From a bacterium (GTDB lineage: Bacteria; Myxococcota_A; Bradymonadia; UBA7976; UBA1532), in the NCBI GenBank assembly GCA_030427205.1, contig JAUHXC010000051.1, positions 1,336-65,335 of the forward strand: a stretch of 64,000 nucleotides of DNA, in the 5' to 3' direction. The translations under genes and the position numbers were made by a program. This document shows positions 1,209-16,282 of this stretch, piece by piece (the stretch's first letter is position 1; the number at the start of each line of letters is the position of its first letter). The notes beneath the pieces were generated by a model. It was given only the letters and a program-made list of their open reading frames with translations. It did no database searches and was not told the DNA's origin.

Positions 1209-3295
1209 GCGCCGCCGACACCGCGTTCGACTTCGACGCCGGCGCCCACCGCTTGCGCCGCCGGACCCGCTGGGCCGCAGCGGGCATCGCGCTGGGCTCG
1301 GTCCTGCCCTACGAGGTCATCGCCGGTCGCCCGCAGTACATCTGGGATCTGGCCGACGAGCTGCCGCCGGCGGGCCTGCTGGCGGTCTGCGCCCCGGCCC
1401 TCGCCGGCCTGCTGATCGCCGTCGCCGGCTGGCGCGCGCGCCGCCCGGGCTCGCTGGGCTGGATCGTCCTGGCCACGCTGATCGGCATGCGCCTGGTCAT
1501 CGACGTCGGCGCCGACGCCGCCGCCTGGGGCGCGCTCGGGCTGCCGGAGAGCGTGACCGCCCGCCAGGGCTGGGCCCTGCTCGCGTTGGGGGCGACCGCC
1601 GCCGGCGCGACGCTGACCTTCAAGGCCCACGCCCGCCGCGCGGGGCACGGGCTGCTCATCGCGGCGGTGCTCGTCGCCGCGGCGTTCTTCGGCTGGCCCG
1701 GCCGCGGCGAGGCGCCGATCCGCACGATCATCCGCGCCGCGGGCGCCTTTGGCGATCTGCCCGATTGGCGCTTTCAGCTGGGCATGCTCGTGGTGGGCAC
1801 GATGGCGCTGTGGCCGGCGCTGGTGGCGCTGGCCGGCCTGCTGCACCTCAAGCGGCCGGCGCGGGACGATCACCCGATCATCGCGCTGGTCGCCCTCTAT
1901 GGCCTGCCGTTGCTGATCGCGATGCTGGTCTTCCGGGCCGTGCCCGGCGCGGGCGATGGGTGGAGCATCTTCGTCGCCCTGGGCACCATCGCCGTGCTCG
2001 CCGCCACCGTCGCGCTGCTCGCCTCGGCCCTCGAGGCGGCCGTCGAGGCCACCTTCGCCCCGCCGCCCGGGGTCGAGCCGCCGCCCGGGTGGCCGCCGCG
2101 CACGACCGCGGCCCTCGCCGGCGGCGTGATGCTGCTCGTCGTCGGCCTGACCGTCGCGCTGGCCCGACCGCCGGAGAAGGGCGTCGAGTGGCCCCTCGGA
2201 CCGCGCACGCCGCCGGCCGACGCGGTCTTCACCGAGCAGCTGCCCGCCTGGAACCGCGCCCGCCTCGCCTGGGATAGCAGCGCGCGCACCGGCAGCGGGG
2301 CCACCGCGTTGCTGCGGGTCAAGGCAGCCGGGCGCTCGCTGATCGAGGCGGCCGAGGCGGTCGACGCCGGGCTGGCGCGCGCCCTGGCCGACATGGTGGC
2401 CGGCGCCCGCGACCTGCACGTCGCCGGCCGCACCTGGTATCGGCTGGTGGCCGCGGTCAACGAGGCCAGCCGCCTCGCCGGTCTGCCCTATTATCTCGAC
2501 CCGACCGTCTTCACCTTCCAGACCGCCGACGGGCCCGGGCGCCACTTCCGCATGCGCACGTTCGCCGTCGAGAAGGTCCGCCGCTTCGACGTCGAGGACC
2601 AGCCGTTCGCGACCCTGCACGTCCGGCGCATCGACGTGCGCGACGCCGGCAGCCGGCTGCTCGGCTTCAGCCGCGACGTGCAGCGCTTCGCCCTCGTCGA
2701 CCTCGACGAGGCGAGCCGCTTCGAGACCTCGCTCGCCGAGAGCGCGCTGGCCGAGCCGCCGCTGTGCGAGACGATCGAGGTCGAGGACGCCGGCCCGGGC
2801 CTCGCCCGCTGCGGCGCGGTGCTCGCCGAGCTGCTGCGCACCCTGCCCGATGGCCTGACCCCGGCCATCGTCGCGACCACCGACCGCCACGAGCTGCAGC
2901 ATCAGATCGATGGGCCGCACCTGCCGCTGTCGTCGGCGGTGCTCGCGCGCCTCGGCGGGCGCCATCCGCGACTGCAAGAGCGGGTCAACCGCGAGCTGTC
3001 GGCCTACGTCGCCGAGCTGACGAGCCCCGACGCGCCGCCGACGGTGGGCTTGATCCACCTCGTGCGCTTCGCCCTGCAGGGCGGCGGCTATCTACATCAT
3101 GTGGCCATGATCGCGTTCGAGACGATGGTCGATCGCCCGCTGGACGACGGCTTCGGCGGCCCCGATCACCGCGCCGTGGCCGACGCCTTCGCCCAGCTCG
3201 CCGCCCTGCCGCCCGATGTCCTGCGTCAGCGCGCCGCCGACGCCTGGGCGACGCTGTTCGGCGAAGGGTTGGCCGAGGTGGCGTCCGTCGACTGA
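1205..3295 (+). CDS. polytopic membrane protein with a large C-terminal soluble domain (hypothetical)
   Basis: The 696-aa ORF has strong GC3. Multiple hydrophobic helices sit in the first ~330 aa. The ATG overlaps the upstream stop. The antisense ORF 1130..3058 translates as Arg/Gly-rich junk. Confidence 0.7.
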   Translation: MSAADTAFDFDAGAHRLRRRTRWAAAGIALGSVLPYEVIAGRPQYIWDLADELPPAGLLAVCAPALAGLLIAVAGWRARRPGSLGWIVLATLIGMRLVIDVGADAAAWGALGLPESVTARQGWALLALGATAAGATLTFKAHARRAGHGLLIAAVLVAAAFFGWPGRGEAPIRTIIRAAGAFGDLPDWRFQLGMLVVGTMALWPALVALAGLLHLKRPARDDHPIIALVALYGLPLLIAMLVFRAVPGAGDGWSIFVALGTIAVLAATVALLASALEAAVEATFAPPPGVEPPPGWPPRTTAALAGGVMLLVVGLTVALARPPEKGVEWPLGPRTPPADAVFTEQLPAWNRARLAWDSSARTGSGATALLRVKAAGRSLIEAAEAVDAGLARALADMVAGARDLHVAGRTWYRLVAAVNEASRLAGLPYYLDPTVFTFQTADGPGRHFRMRTFAVEKVRRFDVEDQPFATLHVRRIDVRDAGSRLLGFSRDVQRFALVDLDEASRFETSLAESALAEPPLCETIEVEDAGPGLARCGAVLAELLRTLPDGLTPAIVATTDRHELQHQIDGPHLPLSSAVLARLGGRHPRLQERVNRELSAYVAELTSPDAPPTVGLIHLVRFALQGGGYLHHVAMIAFETMVDRPLDDGFGGPDHRAVADAFAQLAALPPDVLRQRAADAWATLFGEGLAEVASVD

Positions 3296-4791: not shown

Positions 4792-5871
4792 TCAGACGGG
4801 CAGCTCGACCTCGAAGCGGGCCCCGCCCAGCGCAGCGCTTTCGCTCACCGTCACCCGCCCACCCATCAGCTCGACGCAGCGCCGGACGGTCGCCAGCCCG
4901 AAGCCGTGGCCCGACGCCGCGCTGCCCAGGCGCACGAGCGGCTCGAAGATCCGCTGGCGGGACTCGACCGGGATCCCCCGGCCGTTGTCCTCGACGATCA
5001 GCGCCGTCCGCCCGATGCGCGGCTCTGCCGAGAGCCGCACGATGGGCGCCCGATCGGCGGGGCAGTACTTCAGCGCGTTGTCGAGCAGGTTGTAGACGAC
5101 CTGCCCGACCAGCGTGCGATCGCCCAGCACCGTCGGCAGCGACGGGGGCAGCTCGATCTGCGCGCCGCGCTCGGCGATGCTCAGGGCCAGCCGATCGACG
5201 GCGTTCTGCGCCGCCGCCGACAGCGACACCGGCTGGCTCTCGATGGCGGTCGAACCCAGGCGGGCGTAGTCCAGCAGCACCTCGACCAGCTCGGCGAGCT
5301 GCACCGCGAGGCTGCGCGAGGCGTCGACGAGCGGCGAGTCGCTCTCGGCGGCGATCAGGCCGAGGAAGCCCTCCAGCGTGCGCAGCGGAGACTTGAGGTC
5401 GTGGCCCGCCGCGCGCAGGAAGAGCTGCAGATCGGCGTTGCGCAGCGCGAGCGCGTCGCGGGTGAGCGACAGCTCGTTGCGCTCCTGGTTGAGCTCGCTC
5501 TTCAGCCGACCCGCGCCGGTCACGTCGACCAGCCAGTGCACGCGCACGGTCGGATCGTCGCTCTTGACGTGCACGCTCAGCTCGTAGAACCGCTGCCCGC
5601 CGCTCGGCCCGGTCCGATTGAGCCAGGGCAGAACATAGGGCTCGCCGCCGGCCACGGCCTCCTCGATGGCCTGCTCGGCCCCCAGCAGCTCGGGCAGCGC
5701 GTCGGTCAGCGGGTCACCGGCCGAGAGCGTGCCCCAGACGTGGCGCGCGCCGCCGATGGCCTGCACGACCAACGCGGCGTCGGTCAGCGCGCAGCCGATG
5801 CCACGGCGGGTACACAGCTCGTCGAAGAGACCGTCGAAGCCGATCCCGTCGCCCGTCGGCTCGCGGCTCAC
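4792..5871 (-). CDS. cytoplasmic sensor histidine kinase (HisKA + HATPase_c)
   Basis: An H-box is present (FLRAAGHDLKSPLRTLEGF), along with N/G1/G2 boxes (LLDNALKY, EDNGRGIP, GHGFGLA). The listed ORF start at 6195 gives an Arg/Gly-rich N-terminus overlapping the GTPase gene. The likely start is the GTG at 5871, which overlaps the GTPase TGA (GTGA). Confidence 0.85.
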   Translation of the reverse strand: MSREPTGDGIGFDGLFDELCTRRGIGCALTDAALVVQAIGGARHVWGTLSAGDPLTDALPELLGAEQAIEEAVAGGEPYVLPWLNRTGPSGGQRFYELSVHVKSDDPTVRVHWLVDVTGAGRLKSELNQERNELSLTRDALALRNADLQLFLRAAGHDLKSPLRTLEGFLGLIAAESDSPLVDASRSLAVQLAELVEVLLDYARLGSTAIESQPVSLSAAAQNAVDRLALSIAERGAQIELPPSLPTVLGDRTLVGQVVYNLLDNALKYCPADRAPIVRLSAEPRIGRTALIVEDNGRGIPVESRQRIFEPLVRLGSAASGHGFGLATVRRCVELMGGRVTVSESAALGGARFEVELPV

Positions 5872-6365
5872 TTGGCCAGCAGGGCCCGGCCGAGCGTGGC
5901 GAAGGCCTCCTCCACCCCGTCGCCGGTGCGCGCGCTCGTCGCGAACCAGCGCGCGTCGAGCCGGGCCGCCTGCTCGACGATCGCGCCCGTGTCGATGGCC
6001 GGGGCGAGGTCGCTCTTGTTGGCGCACATGATGCGGGGCACCGCGCCCACCGCCTGCACGAGGCTGCCCACCTCCTCGTCGATGGTGCCGAAGGTGCGCG
6101 GGCGGGTCGTATCGCCCACCAGGATCGCGCCCGACGCGCCCTTGAGATAGCTCGGGCGCAGCCCTTCGAAGCCCTCCCGGCCGCTGATGTCCCACAGCAT
6201 CAGGGTCAGCGCGGTGCCGTCGATCGTCAGCGGCTTGCGGCTGACCTTGACCCCCATGGTGCTGAGGTACTTGTCGTCGAAGGCATCCTCGACGAAGCGC
6301 CGCACCAACGAGGTCTTGCCGACCGCGAAGCTGCCCATCATCACGACTTTCTTGAAGATCGCCAC
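5868..6365 (-). CDS. Ras-superfamily small GTPase
   Basis: Motifs present: G1 GSFAVGKTS, a switch-I Thr in YLSTMGV, G3 WDISGRE, and G4 CANKSDL (NKxD). The likely start is a GTG preceded by GGGGGAG. The N-terminal 36 aa of the listed ORF look non-coding. Confidence 0.8.
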   Translation of the reverse strand: MAIFKKVVMMGSFAVGKTSLVRRFVEDAFDDKYLSTMGVKVSRKPLTIDGTALTLMLWDISGREGFEGLRPSYLKGASGAILVGDTTRPRTFGTIDEEVGSLVQAVGAVPRIMCANKSDLAPAIDTGAIVEQAARLDARWFATSARTGDGVEEAFATLGRALLAK

Positions 6366-6447
6366 CGTGCTCCCCCGGACGTGCTCCGCGCAGGCTACTC
6401 CCCCGGCCGCCGTCGATCCACCCCGACGCGGGGGCAGGGGCGGGCTC

Positions 6448-6482
6448 GTCTCAGAGAAACGGCTGCGTCTCATCTCGTCTCA
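6448..6482 (-). promoter_or_regulatory. three GTCTCA (TGAGAC on the minus strand) direct repeats in the promoter region of the GTPase-kinase operon
   Basis: GTCTCA at 6448, 6467 and 6477, with 19- and 10-bp spacing. Located in the 358-bp divergent intergenic region. Confidence 0.3.
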
Positions 6483-6724
6483 GCGGCCTGCGGCACCCGG
6501 CGGATCGCGCCGCCGCGGTCTCCAGCCGCGCCGCGCCCGTTGGGCGATGAATCCGGGCCTCGCGCTCGGACGGGCCGCCGGAACAAGACATGGCATACAG
6601 CGTGCAGTACCGCAGTGGCACATGGCGCGCGACGCCGACGCGGCGAGACCGAGAGACCGGCGGCCGCCGTAACCCACAGCGCAAAACATCGCTCGAATAC
6701 GCCCCAACGCCTCGGAGACGACCG

Positions 6725-7159
6725 ATGATGCACGACCCCGACGACCTGTCCGCCCGCCTGTGGACCGCCTCCGAACAGATCCGGCTCACGGCCACCGCGC
6801 TGGCGTGCATCGCCGAGGGCCTCGACGCGGTGGACGAGGCGATGGTGCCGCACATCGCCCGGCTCGAGCACCGCGCCGCCGAGCTGATGCGCACGACGCT
6901 GCGCCTCGCCCGCGACGCCGGCCTCGCCGAGTCCTGGGGTCTGGAGCTGCTCTTCAGCGGGTCCGAGCCGAGCCGGCCCCGGCGGCCGCAGCCCGCGGCC
7001 TCGCAGTCGATCGAGCTCGATCCGCTGCCGCTCTTCGATCCCCTGCCGCCCCCGCCCGTGCGGCGGCTGCAGCCGGTCCGCGCGCCGTGGACGGCGCAAC
7101 CGACTTTGCCCGGCGCGTCGGAGCCGGGCCTGCCGGTCGAGGTCGAGCTGCCGATGTGA
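6725..7159 (+). CDS. hypothetical protein (~144 aa, Pro-rich C-terminus)
   Basis: GC3 is very high in this frame starting from an ATG ATG pair. The antisense frames give Ser/Arg-rich junk. No recognisable domain. Confidence 0.45.
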   Translation: MMHDPDDLSARLWTASEQIRLTATALACIAEGLDAVDEAMVPHIARLEHRAAELMRTTLRLARDAGLAESWGLELLFSGSEPSRPRRPQPAASQSIELDPLPLFDPLPPPPVRRLQPVRAPWTAQPTLPGASEPGLPVEVELPM

Positions 7160-7221
7160 CCCGCTCGGCCCGCGGCGCCGAGATCCGGCCTGTACGGGGC
7201 CGTGGGCGGCATCAGGGCCCA

Positions 7222-9195
7222 TCAGGGCCCCGGCACCTCGAGCCGGATCCGCGCGACCCGCCCCGCCGAGCGCCCCGTAGCGGCGCGCCGCATCACCGCC
7301 CCTTGCAGCCGCGGATCGGTCAACAGCCGATCGGCCACGACGTCGGCCCGCGCCCGCCGCAGCTGGGCGTTGCGCCGCGGGCTGCCGGAGGCGTCGGCGT
7401 GCCCCTCGACGACGAAGCGCAGCCACGGGCGGGCCTGACGCAGGCGAGCCATGTCGCTGAGGGTCCGGGTCAGCATCGCCTCACCCGCGGCGGTCAGCTC
7501 GGCGACGTCGGGGCCGAACTCGATCTCCACCGCCTCGACCCGCGCCTCGGCCGCGTCGAGCGCGTCCACCGCCGCCGTCACGTCCACCGCGTCGATGCCG
7601 TCGAGGGCGACGCCCCGGCGCTCCGCGCTCTCCAGCCACGCCGCGGGCGCCTCGCCGGTCACCACCAGCGTGCCGCCCTCGAGTCGAAGCTGCGCGCTGT
7701 CTGGCGGGTCGAGCAGCAGCCGCGCGCGATCGAGCCGCTCGTCGATGATGCGCAGCGATCCGCTCTCGACCCGGTGCACCCCGGGCACCAGCGGCAGGAT
7801 GGCCCCGTAGCGCTGCCACCAGTCGGCGGAGGCCTCACCGAAAACGGTCACCGTCCCCCGATCGAAGACCAGCTCCACCCCGTCCGGCGCATCGACCGCC
7901 ATGTGCAGCCGCCGCAAGACCAGATCCGGGTGATGGGCGTGGTAGGCCTCGAAGTCGGCGCTCCACTCGTTCAGCCCGAGGCCGTGCGCATCGAAGATCG
8001 ACACCGGTGAGCGGGCCAGCGGGTCGCGCAGCCCGCGCACGTGGTGGTGCGCGCCGTCGCGCTGGGCCTGAACGACCACGATGCCCGGCTCGCGGTCGAG
8101 GGCGTCGAGCACCATCTGCCAGCGGGACTCCGCCTGCCACGCGGCGAAGACGGCGTAGCCGATGAGACCCACGACGGCCAGCAGCAGCATCACCGCCGGC
8201 CACAGCCGCGGCGCGGGCGGATCGGGCGAGCGCTCGACGAGTTCGAGCAGCAGGGGCTCGATGTCGGCGAAGCGATCGACGTCGCCCTCGAACTCCACCA
8301 GCCGCCGATGGGTCCGCTGGTCGATGGTGTCCATCGTCTCGTCGATGACCCCGCGGAAGGCGGGATCGGGCGCGCCGGCCAGCTCGACGGCCAGCACCGC
8401 GCGCGCCGTATTGGCGATCCAGACCGTCTTGTCGCCGATGGAGATGCTCTCGACCGCCTCGTCCTCCCCCGCCCCGAAGCCATCGTGCAGGTACGACTGC
8501 ACCGCGGTGAGCATCGACGAGACCACGTCGGGATCCTGCTCGACGGCCCCCGCGCCGCCGGACGCGGAGACATGGCGCAAGAGGATGCCGGTCTCGGCGT
8601 GGATCAGCAGCGCGCGCACCACCCGCCAACGCAGCGAGCGCAGCAGCACGATCTCGCCGAAAGAGCGCCGGGTGACCACCGCCTCGACCCGCCAGGCCAC
8701 CGAGCGAGGCGAGAAGCTCTGGTCGAGCAGGCGGCTCAATTCGGCCAGCCGGGTCTTGAGCTCCCGGGCGACCCATTGCCGGATCAACGCGCCCATGACC
8801 GGCGTCAGCGCCTCGACGACCCGCGCCTGACCGGCCTCGATGAAGTCGTCGAAGCCGCGGGCCACGACCGGCTGCATGCTCGCCGCGAAGCGCGGATCGT
8901 CCCCTTGCCGCCGCACCGCCTCGGGCAGCACCCGGGCGACCTCGTCGGCGCGGATGTCATCGACGTCCAGACGCCCTTCGAGCGCGTCGAGCCGGGCCTG
9001 CTCCGGGGCGACGAGCAGGCCGCGCAGCGCGCCGTAGTCGTCGCGGGGCTCGGCAGCGTCACGGGGCTCGGCAGCGTCACGGGGCTCGGCGGCGTCGCGA
9101 GGCCCGGCCCGTTCGGGTTCGACCGGCTCGACCGGCTCGCGCGTGGAGACCTCGCCCGGCACGGCCGAGGCCGGGCCGGGCGGATCGTCAGCCAT
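7222..9195 (-). CDS. membrane protein with a Roadblock/LC7-like domain, one TM helix and a C-terminal OmpA/MotB-like peptidoglycan-binding domain
   Basis: The C-terminus (FVVEGHADASGSPRRNAQLRRARADVVADRLL) matches the OmpA_C consensus. One TM helix (LWPAVMLLLAVVGLIGYAVFAAW) is present. The N-terminal cytoplasmic part has three EPRDAA repeats. A segment (RVVRALLIHAETGILLRHVS...VSSMLTAVQSYL...ISIGDKTVWIANTARAVLAVELAG) follows the Roadblock/MglB fold pattern. Confidence 0.7.
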   Translation of the reverse strand: MADDPPGPASAVPGEVSTREPVEPVEPERAGPRDAAEPRDAAEPRDAAEPRDDYGALRGLLVAPEQARLDALEGRLDVDDIRADEVARVLPEAVRRQGDDPRFAASMQPVVARGFDDFIEAGQARVVEALTPVMGALIRQWVARELKTRLAELSRLLDQSFSPRSVAWRVEAVVTRRSFGEIVLLRSLRWRVVRALLIHAETGILLRHVSASGGAGAVEQDPDVVSSMLTAVQSYLHDGFGAGEDEAVESISIGDKTVWIANTARAVLAVELAGAPDPAFRGVIDETMDTIDQRTHRRLVEFEGDVDRFADIEPLLLELVERSPDPPAPRLWPAVMLLLAVVGLIGYAVFAAWQAESRWQMVLDALDREPGIVVVQAQRDGAHHHVRGLRDPLARSPVSIFDAHGLGLNEWSADFEAYHAHHPDLVLRRLHMAVDAPDGVELVFDRGTVTVFGEASADWWQRYGAILPLVPGVHRVESGSLRIIDERLDRARLLLDPPDSAQLRLEGGTLVVTGEAPAAWLESAERRGVALDGIDAVDVTAAVDALDAAEARVEAVEIEFGPDVAELTAAGEAMLTRTLSDMARLRQARPWLRFVVEGHADASGSPRRNAQLRRARADVVADRLLTDPRLQGAVMRRAATGRSAGRVARIRLEVPGP

Positions 9196-9814
9196 CGCTG
9201 TCGATGGCGTCCTCGGCGACCTCGTCGGCGACGCCCAGATCCAGATCGATCAGGCCGTCGTCAAGCCGCAGCGCCAGCTCGGTGAAGAGGCCGGCCAGAC
9301 CCGCGCGGTCCACCTTGTCGGCGCTCAGGTTCTCGACGGCGTCGTCCAGCGTGCGGGTCAGGCTGCCGTGCTGCTCGCGCAGCTCGCCGCGCAGGGTGCG
9401 GGTCAGCTCGAGCAGCTGCTGACGCAGGCTCTGCTCGGCGCGGCTGCTGCGATCGCCGAGCTCACCGAGGCGCTGCTGCAACGAACGCTCGGTCGACTCC
9501 AGCTCACGGGTGAGTCGGCGGCTGTCGTCGGACCGCGCCCCGCTCTCCGCCCGCAGCCGCTCGTCGAGGGCCGACAGCTCGCTGCGGGTGAACGTCTCGA
9601 GGGCCTGCAGCCGACCGTCGACGTCGCTGCGCAGATCGGCGAGCGATCGCTCGACGGTCTCCTCCAGCCGGGCGAAGCGGCGGTTGTAGTCCCGCATCTG
9701 CGCCCCGAAGAGAATGTCCCGGATCTTGTCGACGTTGCCGCCGGTCGCCGCCAGGCCGGCCATGGCGTCGGGCTGCGCCGCTCGCCGCCGTCCGCGCGCT
9801 TTCTCCTTGCCCAT
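9188..9814 (-). CDS. coiled-coil protein (hypothetical)
   Basis: It starts at MGKEKARGRRR with GGAGGGGAG 3 nt upstream. About 200 aa are helical and heptad-like, rich in Leu, Arg and Glu. The listed ORF's N-terminal 252 aa are junk. The gene ends 7 nt before the next start. Confidence 0.6.
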   Translation of the reverse strand: MGKEKARGRRRAAQPDAMAGLAATGGNVDKIRDILFGAQMRDYNRRFARLEETVERSLADLRSDVDGRLQALETFTRSELSALDERLRAESGARSDDSRRLTRELESTERSLQQRLGELGDRSSRAEQSLRQQLLELTRTLRGELREQHGSLTRTLDDAVENLSADKVDRAGLAGLFTELALRLDDGLIDLDLGVADEVAEDAIDSDG

Positions 9815-12403: not shown

Positions 12404-13734
12404 TTCGCGCCTCCCACCATCCGGGTCAGAGTGTATTCGAGCCCCAGGTCGGTGTCTTCGTCACACAGGCGGTTGCCTTTGACGAAGAGCTGCGGGGTCA
12501 TGACCGGCAGCGCGTTGGCCACCGCCCAGCGCAGGCTCTTGACCACCCGGTTGCGGGCCACCGGCGTGCCCAGGCAGCCGCCCACCGCCGGGAAGGCGGC
12601 CTTGATCTGGCTGCGCACCGGCCCGTCGCCGTCCTTGGCCGCTTCGAGCAGCGCCGCCTGGTTCTCGAAGGCCCACTGCAGAATCGCCCGCACGTCGCTC
12701 TGCCCGTTGGCGCAGAGCATCGCCTCGCTGACCGCGCAGGCCCCCGGGTGCAGCGACTCGGTCAGCATCCAGTTGCACTCGGCGTCGAGCGGGAACAGCA
12801 CCGCCCGCAGGTCGAGCGTCTTGTCGAGCCCGCTCTCGTGCAGCCGCCCGTCGAAGGCCTTGCACGCCGGGCACAGCGGGTCGAGCAGCTCGATGGAGGC
12901 CGCCTTGCCCGGGTTGCGGCCGATGTCGAGCATGATGCCCGCCGGATCCTCGGGCTGCACCAGGGTGCCGCAGCCGCTGACCCCGCGCTCATTGGCCTCG
13001 GTCTGCGGGATGAACACCAGCCAGACCATGGTCAGCACGACCACGAAGCCGACGCCTTCGAGCACGCCGACGCCGAAGCGGCGCGCGCCGTCGGGATCAC
13101 CCATCGGCGGCGAGCTGCTCATCACGAACGCCGCGAGCGCGCCGACGAAGGTCAGCCCCGAGACGACGTATATGCCGGCGCAGACGGTGCACAAGGCGCC
13201 CACCTCGCTGTACGAGATGTAGCCGTAGCCGACGCTCATGACCACCGGCAGCACCGTCGCCGCGAGCAGGAAGCCGGTCTCGGCGCGGGTCGCCTCGCCG
13301 CCCTTCCACGCCAGGTGGGCCGCCCGGTAGGCCAGGAAGCAGAAGACGGCCAGCGCGAACAGGCTGATCGGGATGCCGCCCCAGTAGTCGGTGCGGAACC
13401 ACGAGCTGTAGGGGCTCATCATCACGACCTTGCAGCCGTTCTCCATGCCCGCCTCGCCGCCCGGCATCACCGAGCAGGTCACCGAGTGCACCTGCCGGTC
13501 GAGGTGGGCGGCGAAGTCGGCGGTCGAGGTCGCGGCGAACATCGCCCCGCCCAGCGCCGCGAGCAGCACCAGCACCAGCGGGATCCGGACTGGCTTCTGG
13601 CCGAAGCCGGTGTTGATCGGCGGTTCGTAATCGACGTCGGCCTCGACGTCAGCCGCGTCGGGGAAGCCGTCGGCGTCCCCCAGGCTGTAGCCGTCGTCTT
13701 CGGCCAGCTCTTCCCATTTACGGGCCATGCGCAT
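12400..13734 (-). CDS. VKOR (vitamin K epoxide reductase) family membrane protein fused to a DsbA/thioredoxin-like domain
   Basis: Five predicted TM helices carry CTVCAGIY (the VKOR CxxC), followed by a periplasmic domain with the CPAC motif (LLDPLCPACKAF). The likely start is MRMARKWEEL with AGGAG adjacent. The N-terminal 157 aa of the listed ORF are junk. Confidence 0.75.
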   Translation of the reverse strand: MRMARKWEELAEDDGYSLGDADGFPDAADVEADVDYEPPINTGFGQKPVRIPLVLVLLAALGGAMFAATSTADFAAHLDRQVHSVTCSVMPGGEAGMENGCKVVMMSPYSSWFRTDYWGGIPISLFALAVFCFLAYRAAHLAWKGGEATRAETGFLLAATVLPVVMSVGYGYISYSEVGALCTVCAGIYVVSGLTFVGALAAFVMSSSPPMGDPDGARRFGVGVLEGVGFVVVLTMVWLVFIPQTEANERGVSGCGTLVQPEDPAGIMLDIGRNPGKAASIELLDPLCPACKAFDGRLHESGLDKTLDLRAVLFPLDAECNWMLTESLHPGACAVSEAMLCANGQSDVRAILQWAFENQAALLEAAKDGDGPVRSQIKAAFPAVGGCLGTPVARNRVVKSLRWAVANALPVMTPQLFVKGNRLCDEDTDLGLEYTLTRMVGGAK

Positions 13735-13948
13735 CTCCTGCGAGCGGTCGCCTGTCGCATGGGAGGCGCTCGCGGGGCGAAGCGTCGCAAGGCGCGCCGA
13801 TCGACGCAAGCCCGTGACGCCCGGCGGTACAGCCCGGCACGGGCCGGCCCGGGTCACCGGCCGGAAACCGTGCGCCTTTGAGCGATGTGAGCTAAGGTCA
13901 CTCCCGGACTCGAACACCCGCGAAACCACGGACCCGACGGCCGCCCCC

Positions 13949-16282
<2,334 letters not shown>

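Follow-up and report, generated by a model that had tools for sequence, protein, structure and literature searches.

The 64,000-nucleotide stretch of contig JAUHXC010000051.1 examined here (the window; assembly GCA_030427205.1, from a bacterium of the Bradymonadia) carries a cluster of genes for a coiled-coil protein, a 657-residue membrane protein, a Ras-like GTPase and a histidine kinase. The cluster appears to be a typical copy of a widespread and already catalogued system, the Group 1 Rup cassette; we assign it to this group because every feature that we tested matches the published description. The new element is a modest addition: the cytoplasmic domain of the membrane protein, previously described as 'unknown', models as a longin/Roadblock fold. 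We consider it probable, if well short of certain, that the four gene products form a switch leading from the cell envelope to the cytoplasm.

The Rup family was defined by Wuichet and Sogaard-Andersen (Genome Biol Evol 2014/2015; PMC4316618), and its Group 1 comprises the closest prokaryotic relatives of Rab, Ran, Ras and Rho (PMC4316618). Group 1 neighbourhoods encode a cytoplasmic coiled-coil protein, a protein in which an unknown domain is followed by a helix in the inner membrane and, C-terminally, by OmpA, a GTPase that lacks the glutamine of its G3 motif, and an output protein, either GGDEF/EAL or a histidine kinase, with an invariant N-terminal glutamine (PMC4316618). The four components in the window match this arrangement gene for gene (coiled-coil protein, transmembrane OmpA protein, GTPase without the G3 glutamine, glutamine-bearing output). 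An earlier reading of the window, made from the letters alone (the sequence-only reading), had proposed the genes of this region, and all were found where it had placed them (Table 1). Since the window is ∼72% G+C, mechanical lists of open reading frames (ORFs) are crowded; the real frames were chosen by codon-position G+C (third position, GC3). All five proteins of the locus, including that of a small divergent gene discussed below, were scanned against Pfam and NCBIfam.

The GTPase gene begins with GTG, preceded by a Shine–Dalgarno-like GGGGGAG. Its product matches Pfam Ras at 3.6e-33 and contains the motifs G1 (GSFAVGKT, residues 11–18), G3 (DISG, 59–62), G4 (NKSD, 116–119) and G5 (SAR, 144–146), which bears out its earlier description as a Ras-like GTPase. 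In a sequence search of the PDB the closest solved relatives are Rabs (1.7e-24). The protein consists of a single domain of 165 residues, which fits the 150–240 residues of the Ras superfamily that characterize Group 1 Rup, and neither a lipidation motif nor a hydrophobic segment was found in it. G3 reads WDISGRE, so that arginine (R63, codon 6187–6189) occupies the position equivalent to Gln61 of Ras. Among 79 GTPases of the family this position is held by Glu (50), Asp (11), Gln (8), Ala (5) or Arg (2); glutamine is thus missing in 71 of the 79, as it is in the window. Arginine is rare here and sets the window GTPase apart from most Group 1 Rup. The G3 aspartate (D59) is invariant (79 of 79), and its retention (DxxG) distinguishes the window GTPase from MglA, whose G3 lacks the conserved Asp (PMC4316618). 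The motifs, the synteny and the name 'Rab family GTPase' that NCBI gives to homologues together point to a Group 1 Rup GTPase.

Synteny was examined by tblastn across 85 loci related to the membrane protein, 81 of which are informative for the GTPase. The GTPase gene lies directly downstream of the membrane-protein gene, on the same strand, in 73 of the 85 and elsewhere within 6 kb in six; in another six it was not found, four of these being at a contig edge. It is therefore present within 6 kb in 79 of the 81 informative loci. In 83 of the 85 the membrane-protein gene is directly preceded by a coiled-coil homologue. The close relatives L001, L086 and L087, which are 69–76% identical to the window, share the order glyoxalase, coiled-coil protein, membrane protein, GTPase, kinase, sulfotransferase, and distant relatives (Acidobacteriota, Pirellulaceae and others) keep the coiled-coil, membrane-protein and GTPase genes. 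The synteny spans Acidobacteriota, Nitrospirota, Desulfobacterota, Zetaproteobacteria, Planctomycetota and Cyanobacteria. The grouping of these genes exceeds chance, the same set being kept across phyla, and because the gene order is conserved a functional link between membrane protein and GTPase is strongly backed. The sequence-only reading would have counted against itself a lack of conservation of the GTPase–kinase pair near such a membrane protein in related genomes. This refuting outcome did not occur, for the GTPase is kept there, directly downstream in the 73 loci given above; the fourth gene encodes a kinase in 17 of 68 loci.

Relatives of the membrane protein were found in at least 572 species genomes, a lower bound obtained by scanning one genome per species. 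Carriers include Blastocatellia, Vicinamibacterales, Nitrospira, Desulfobacterales, Mariprofundaceae, Planctomycetota and Chromatiaceae, and the cyanobacteria Fischerella and Scytonema are among the matches listed. A profile of the cytoplasmic domain only retrieved 5720 representatives of 50%-identity clusters, 4396 of them at E ≤ 1e-10. The OmpA_C tether, which the sequence-only reading had thought unusual, is accordingly the canonical layout of Group 1 Rup (PMC4316618) and is common.

An alignment of 82 homologues of the membrane protein, in which the cytoplasmic region stands out as strongly conserved, served as input for an AlphaFold2 model of the whole chain, with a mean predicted local distance difference test (pLDDT) of 77.9. 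The N-terminus is modelled as disordered and acidic with PRDAAE repeated three times, followed by four long helices (residues 54–175) and the cytoplasmic domain considered below. The PRDAAE copies are perfect and in tandem (residues 32–49; 9049–9102), and close relatives have other low-complexity, acidic or proline-rich sequence at this site. There is only one hydrophobic stretch, LWPAVMLLLAVVGLIGYAVFAAW (Kyte–Doolittle maximum 2.53 at residue 334), which sits within a modelled long helix (333–368). Beyond it come three α/β repeats, modelled at pLDDT above 90, for which Foldseek returned the BON proteins OsmY, DolP and BonA and the ring-building motif of YscD; Pfam BON gives sub-threshold matches in longer members of the family.

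The C-terminal domain is the only part of the protein that Pfam recognizes (OmpA, residues 560–626, 31.2 bits against a cut-off of 27.2, 2.8e-7). Pfam OmpA is found in 30 of 32 family members checked, the family profile matches OmpA-like domains in the PDB at 1.8e-14, and Foldseek with the whole model gave OmpA_C/Pal structures at 1e-5, besides the longin protein AP-2 sigma at 8e-4. The segment GHADASGSPRRNAQLRRARA (GHAD...RRARA) at residues 598–617 retains the Asp/Arg pair of OmpA_C. We take the Asp and Arg of GH-x-D ... L-x-x-R-A to be the residues that contact diaminopimelate in Pal/OmpA structures. The transmembrane helix and the OmpA_C domain proposed by the sequence-only reading were thus both found, and the predicted topology places the N-terminus inside and OmpA_C outside. 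In its OmpA_C fold the protein resembles Pal, YfiB and MotB, and in its repeats the BON domains of OsmY and DolP. Unlike the window protein, those are lipoproteins, porins or stators, and they have no large signalling region in the cytoplasm. Fusions to a GTPase were absent from the eight family members of unusual length that we examined. In one protein of 2171 residues (P0210) the longin-like domain occurs three times, alongside CARDB, TPR and DUF5915 matches; this architecture is either atypical or an artefact of assembly or gene calling.

The sequence-only reading had guessed that residues ∼190–330 are Roadblock-like. At the level of the fold this guess is upheld. The model shows, in order, a helix (179–187), two strands (191–199 and 205–210), a helix (222–238), three strands (250–253, 256–262 and 266–273) and two helices (280–294 and 306–321); the topology of residues 179–321, α-β-β-α-β-β-β-α, has the longin/Roadblock order. 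Modelling residues 160–330 alone left the order of elements unchanged (pLDDT 82.9, predicted template modelling score 0.73). When the domain model was compared with the PDB by Foldseek, 49 of the 50 matches listed were longin or Roadblock proteins and the sole exception, 9l0d_A, comes from the MON1A/CCZ1 complex. The matches include Fuzzy of the CPLANE complex (7q3e_C, 5.8e-5), Mon1–Ccz1 (5ldd, 3.3e-4), AP-2 sigma (4.8e-4) and AP-1 sigma, LAMTOR/Ragulator (6ehr_B, 5.8e-4), MglB of Thermus and Myxococcus (3t1r, 1j3w, 3t12 and 6izw, 6.5e-4 to 2.6e-3), a Streptomyces Roadblock/LC7 protein, an Asgard Roadblock protein and the longin domain of VAMP7. Template modelling scores (TM-scores), normalized by query length, range from 0.36 to 0.51. 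The root mean square deviation (rmsd) is lower for the longin matches (4–5 Å) than for most Roadblock matches, and the domain seems to resemble longin subunits of guanine nucleotide exchange factors (GEFs) slightly better than it does MglB.

Sequence profiles do not show this resemblance. No Robl_LC7 or longin family was detected in the 657-residue protein by Pfam or NCBIfam, the 32 family members together gave a single Robl_LC7 match (E = 0.2), and in the PDB the domain-only profile picked up neither a Roadblock nor a longin chain at E ≤ 10. The full protein, the family profile and the domain profile were each run against the PDB for a sequence-level link to Roadblock proteins; they returned only OmpA-like domains, and the link was dropped. 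The lack of any relation in sequence to the Roadblock and longin families, the low TM-scores and the high rmsd of several Roadblock matches would also fit a different view of residues 179–321, namely that they are a generic sensor of small ligands or proteins (profilin, GAF or PAS-like) which signals indirectly or has the GTPase upstream of it. We regard this as quite improbable. Longin and Roadblock proteins make up nearly all the matches listed, none of the 50 is a PAS or GAF protein, the order of strands and helices fits, and this fold usually serves small GTPases, of which the conserved neighbour is one.

If the fold is accepted, the membrane protein could still be a pure anchor or scaffold that holds the GTPase, and through it the output, at a fixed site of the envelope and neither senses a signal nor alters the nucleotide state, with regulation coming from elsewhere, for instance from the coiled-coil protein or the N-terminal domain of the output. 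Such a role would suit a GTPase with neither lipidation motif nor hydrophobic segment; OmpA_C and BON are anchoring modules, and Ragulator, which anchors the Rag GTPases, is among the structural matches. We nevertheless think it rather unlikely. The family carries a domain signature, D.VSSMLTA(I/V).(D/S)(F/Y), and the helix D.VSSMLTA..DF..DSF is invariant across phyla, as are further positions of the domain. Conservation of this kind exceeds the need of a passive tether and so weakens the case for a mere anchor. Moreover, longin/Roadblock platforms of known function are usually GEFs or GTPase-activating proteins (GAPs).

Three known systems invite comparison. Like MglA–MglB of Myxococcus and Thermus, the locus places a small GTPase gene beside a gene for a protein with a Roadblock-type fold. 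MglB, however, is a soluble protein of ∼160 residues that belongs to Pfam Robl_LC7, whereas in the window the fold lies inside a 657-residue membrane protein without a Robl_LC7 match; none of the five proteins of the locus is a stand-alone Robl_LC7 protein, and the motility context of MglA–MglB is absent. MglB homologues are, according to PMC4316618, not coupled to any of the Rup GTPases. The actinobacterial conservon (CvnA–D/Mfp) likewise brings together a histidine kinase, a Roadblock fold and a small GTPase, in a signalling unit that resembles a G-protein system (PMC4316618, PMC13343842). Its kinase is a membrane sensor with HAMP and its Roadblock protein is soluble, whereas here the kinase is predicted to be soluble and the fold is carried by the membrane protein; the conservon also has DUF742 and an MglA-family GTPase, while the window has no DUF742 and a Rup/Rab-like GTPase. 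The closest parallels in structure are eukaryotic. Fuzzy–Inturned/CPLANE with Rab23/RSG1, Mon1–Ccz1 with Rab7 and Ragulator with the Rag GTPases share a membrane-attached platform and a Rab-like client, and provide the best structural matches. They differ in that there is no detectable sequence homology, in that the window protein has one such domain on one chain in place of a tri-longin heterodimer, and in their anchor, which is lipid in the eukaryotic platforms and a transmembrane helix plus a peptidoglycan-binding domain in the window.

The gene of the coiled-coil protein overlaps that of the membrane protein by 8 nt (ATGGCTGA), as it also does in the gene calls of L001, L086 and L087. Apart from weak coiled-coil matches Pfam finds nothing in the product, whose family has the N-terminal consensus dk.RdilFG.Q.r....rf.rlE.rl. 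The conserved parts of the two proteins open alike, with IRDILFGAQMRDYNRRFARLEETV in the coiled-coil protein (9690–9740) and LRGLLVAPEQARLDALEGRL in the membrane protein (8990–9040; family consensus ELR.L.VGPEQ..L.AL..RLDD). The likeness hints that both have the same helix and use it to bind each other or a common partner. A PADLOC search found no defence system. The coiled-coil protein did give weak PADLOC matches to the long coiled-coil tail of ZorA (about 3e-4), which we judged compositional; ZorB likewise has an OmpA-like wall anchor. These matches, the resemblance of a transmembrane helix plus periplasmic OmpA_C to MotB, and the presence of MotB, PomB and MotY among the OmpA-domain profile matches would be expected if the membrane protein were a MotB-, TolR- or ZorB-like part of an envelope machine driven by ions, to which the GTPase would be accessory. 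We give this idea scarcely any credence, as no MotA-, ExbB- or TolQ-type gene is adjacent in the window, L001, L003–L005, L086 or L087, the ZorA match is sub-significant and limited to the tail, and a cytoplasmic N-terminus of 330 residues is unlike MotB.

The junction of the GTPase and kinase genes reads ...GCC AAG TGA, with GTG AGC in the +1 register, and the frame of high GC3 changes over exactly at 5870, within the overlap. Because the coding frame switches there, the kinase is the 359-residue protein given in Table 1 and not the 467-residue mechanical ORF. The GTGA overlap claimed by the sequence-only reading is thus real; its further claim that the two proteins are made stoichiometrically was only an extrapolation from that overlap. 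HisKA (residues 148–207) and HATPase_c (250–358) are recognized by Pfam, and the H-box (HDLK157) and the N, G1 and G2 boxes are all present. No hydrophobic segment was found (Kyte–Doolittle maximum 1.43) and the kinase is therefore predicted to be soluble. Its N-terminal domain has no sequence relatives in Pfam, NCBIfam or the PDB; in an alignment of this type of domain (type B) G40, G41 and Q129 are invariant.

The gene that follows the GTPase was surveyed in 68 loci. It encodes a histidine kinase in 17, a sigma-54 activator in 16, a class III adenylate/guanylate cyclase in eight and an HD protein in five, often with PAS or receiver domains; the remaining products are short (170–290 residues) and in Acidobacteriota are hardly more than the N-terminal domain. 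Sigma-54 activators, cyclases and HD proteins extend the range of outputs given in PMC4316618. We take the kinase to be one of several interchangeable outputs of the system rather than the fixed partner of the GTPase that the sequence-only reading had made of it. Common to the fourth-gene products is an N-terminal domain, which occurs in two types and ends in a glutamine in 62 of the 68; this glutamine is invariant in 25 type-B sequences and corresponds to Q129 of the window kinase. Compared by hhalign, the two types showed no significant homology (E = 0.017, probability 2.7%).

The variety of outputs could mean that the GTPase–kinase overlap is incidental operon packing and that the kinase acts independently of the GTPase, the more so as a kinase is found in only a quarter of the loci and an overlap alone is no proof of function. 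This we consider very unlikely, since the fourth gene carries the same family-specific N-terminal domain with its glutamine whatever the output domain, and since a 4-nt overlap with the GTPase stop is frequent in distant phyla (it recurs in L001, L087 and about 18 distant loci). Elsewhere in the window, ∼4 kb upstream of the cluster and past the VKOR and glyoxalase genes, a hybrid kinase with the domain order PAS-PAS-HisKA-HATPase_c-receiver is encoded at 13727–16282 (+).

Unlike the typical Group 1 Rup operon, that of the window is broken by a segment of ∼790 bp with an unrelated divergent gene. The membrane-protein and GTPase genes are 856 bp apart, against 88–118 bp in close relatives. Homology to L001, L086 and L087 ends at 7194–7222, where the membrane-protein gene stops, and restarts at 6401–6412, shortly before the GTPase start (blastn), and in the corresponding interval these relatives have only 18–120 bp. 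The divergent gene has a GC3 of 0.89–0.96 on the plus strand. Its product is 100% identical to P0204 and 43–58% identical to P0205–P0209, which come from other metagenomes, and has no Pfam or NCBIfam family. The gene was not found by tblastn in any of the 85 related loci, and a 45%-identical homologue in L089 has as neighbours a fatty-acid hydroxylase and a Ser/Thr kinase rather than a Rup locus. These comparisons indicate a lineage-specific insertion that split an ancestral four-gene operon. A mobile element was considered and rejected, as no notable inverted or direct repeats were seen at the ends of the insertion and it occurs only once in the window. The sequence-only reading had described a 358-bp promoter region and a small divergent gene; the spacer (6366–6724, 359 bp) and the gene exist, and a scan of this 73%-GC region for sigma-70 promoters found nothing. 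As parts of an insertion absent from the relatives, neither the spacer nor the gene belongs to the system.

We suggest the following model for the switch. The membrane protein would be fixed to the wall through OmpA_C, with the BON-like repeats extending into the envelope. Its cytoplasmic longin/Roadblock domain would form a probably dimeric platform that recruits the GTPase, which has no lipid anchor, to the membrane and governs its nucleotide state; the analogy is with MglB (a GAP) and with Ragulator, Mon1–Ccz1 and Fuzzy–Inturned (GEFs). The coiled-coil protein, encoded in the overlapping frame, is probably a subunit of this platform. The GTP-bound GTPase might then bind the N-terminal domain of the co-translated output and alter autophosphorylation of the soluble kinase. 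Gln129 of the output may supply the missing catalytic glutamine in trans, an idea put forward by Wuichet and Sogaard-Andersen as speculation (PMC4316618); because Gln129 would complete the active site of the GTPase, the effector would also end the signal. Gene content and order, the overlaps, the modelled folds and topology, the missing G3 glutamine and the conserved Gln129 are observed. We infer which proteins touch one another, whether the activity is that of a GEF or a GAP, what the envelope signals and which way information flows, and our confidence falls from membership of one pathway, through wall anchoring, binding and control of the GTPase and modulation of the kinase, to the action of Q129 in trans.

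Several observations weigh against this model. A probable linker helix starts at the conserved glutamine, which may be structural. No response regulator was seen adjacent to the Rup-associated kinase. As the insertion has split the operon, the GTPase–kinase pair is presumably now transcribed apart from the coiled-coil/membrane-protein pair. Finally, searches of open-access literature yielded no later experiment or structure on Group 1 Rup; later papers there only cite the classification.

For the window itself, the outcome is mostly the correct annotation of a known cassette. The wider interest lies in the Group 1 Rup GTPases, which are the most Rab/Ras/Rho-like of bacterial proteins and occur in thousands of lineages. 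We tentatively raise the possibility, which we still hold to be doubtful, that these closest bacterial relatives of Rab, Ras and Rho have as their conserved partner a membrane-bound longin-type platform, possibly a GEF or GAP, that reports the state of the envelope to interchangeable outputs. If it does act as a GEF or GAP, a partnership between a Rab-like GTPase and a longin/Roadblock regulator would exist in bacteria across many phyla, and the MglA–MglB and Rup branches would share a regulatory logic, contrary to the conclusion of 2014 that Rup has no MglB partner. In the manner of a G protein, the cassette would then relay envelope state to a kinase, a sigma-54 activator or a cyclase. Recognition of the fold offers a testable mechanism, loading or unloading of the GTPase, and ties the Rup systems to MglB, Ragulator and the longin GEFs. 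It could inform how small-GTPase regulation evolved before eukaryotes and how wall or envelope status is coupled to transcription and second-messenger outputs in diderm bacteria.

Table 1. Features of the Group 1 Rup locus, in positions of the window.
Feature	Position	Strand	Description and basis
Coiled-coil gene	9188-9814	-	208 aa; opens the module
Membrane-protein gene	7222-9195	-	657 aa; GC3 support
Small divergent gene	6725-7159	+	144 aa; within the insertion
GTPase gene	5868-6365	-	165 aa; Pfam Ras
Histidine kinase gene	4792-5871	-	359 aa; HisKA + HATPase_c
Overlap of coiled-coil stop and membrane-protein start	9188-9195	-	8 nt, ATGGCTGA
Overlap of GTPase stop and kinase start	5868-5871	-	GTGA
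Longin/Roadblock-fold domain (predicted)	8233-8661	-	residues 179-321 of the 657-aa protein; model and Foldseek
Transmembrane helix (predicted)	8137-8205	-	residues 331-353, LWPAVMLLLAVVGLIGYAVFAAW; Kyte-Doolittle
BON-like periplasmic repeats (predicted)	7561-8091	-	residues ~369-545; model and Foldseek
OmpA_C domain	7237-7527	-	residues 557-653; Pfam, profile against PDB, Foldseek
Probable lineage-specific insertion, ~790 bp	6412-7193	none	blastn against L001, L086 and L087
Kinase N-terminal domain (type B)	5467-5871	-	residues 1-~135; Q129 codon 5485-5487

Beyond the cassette, L001 (15091–17007) and L087 (10656–12569) carry an eCIS_core (PF13699) gene and a 74-residue gene after the sulfotransferase. 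The window has neither at 3226–3295, where the sulfotransferase gene converges directly on a gene for a 696-residue protein that lacks a Pfam match.

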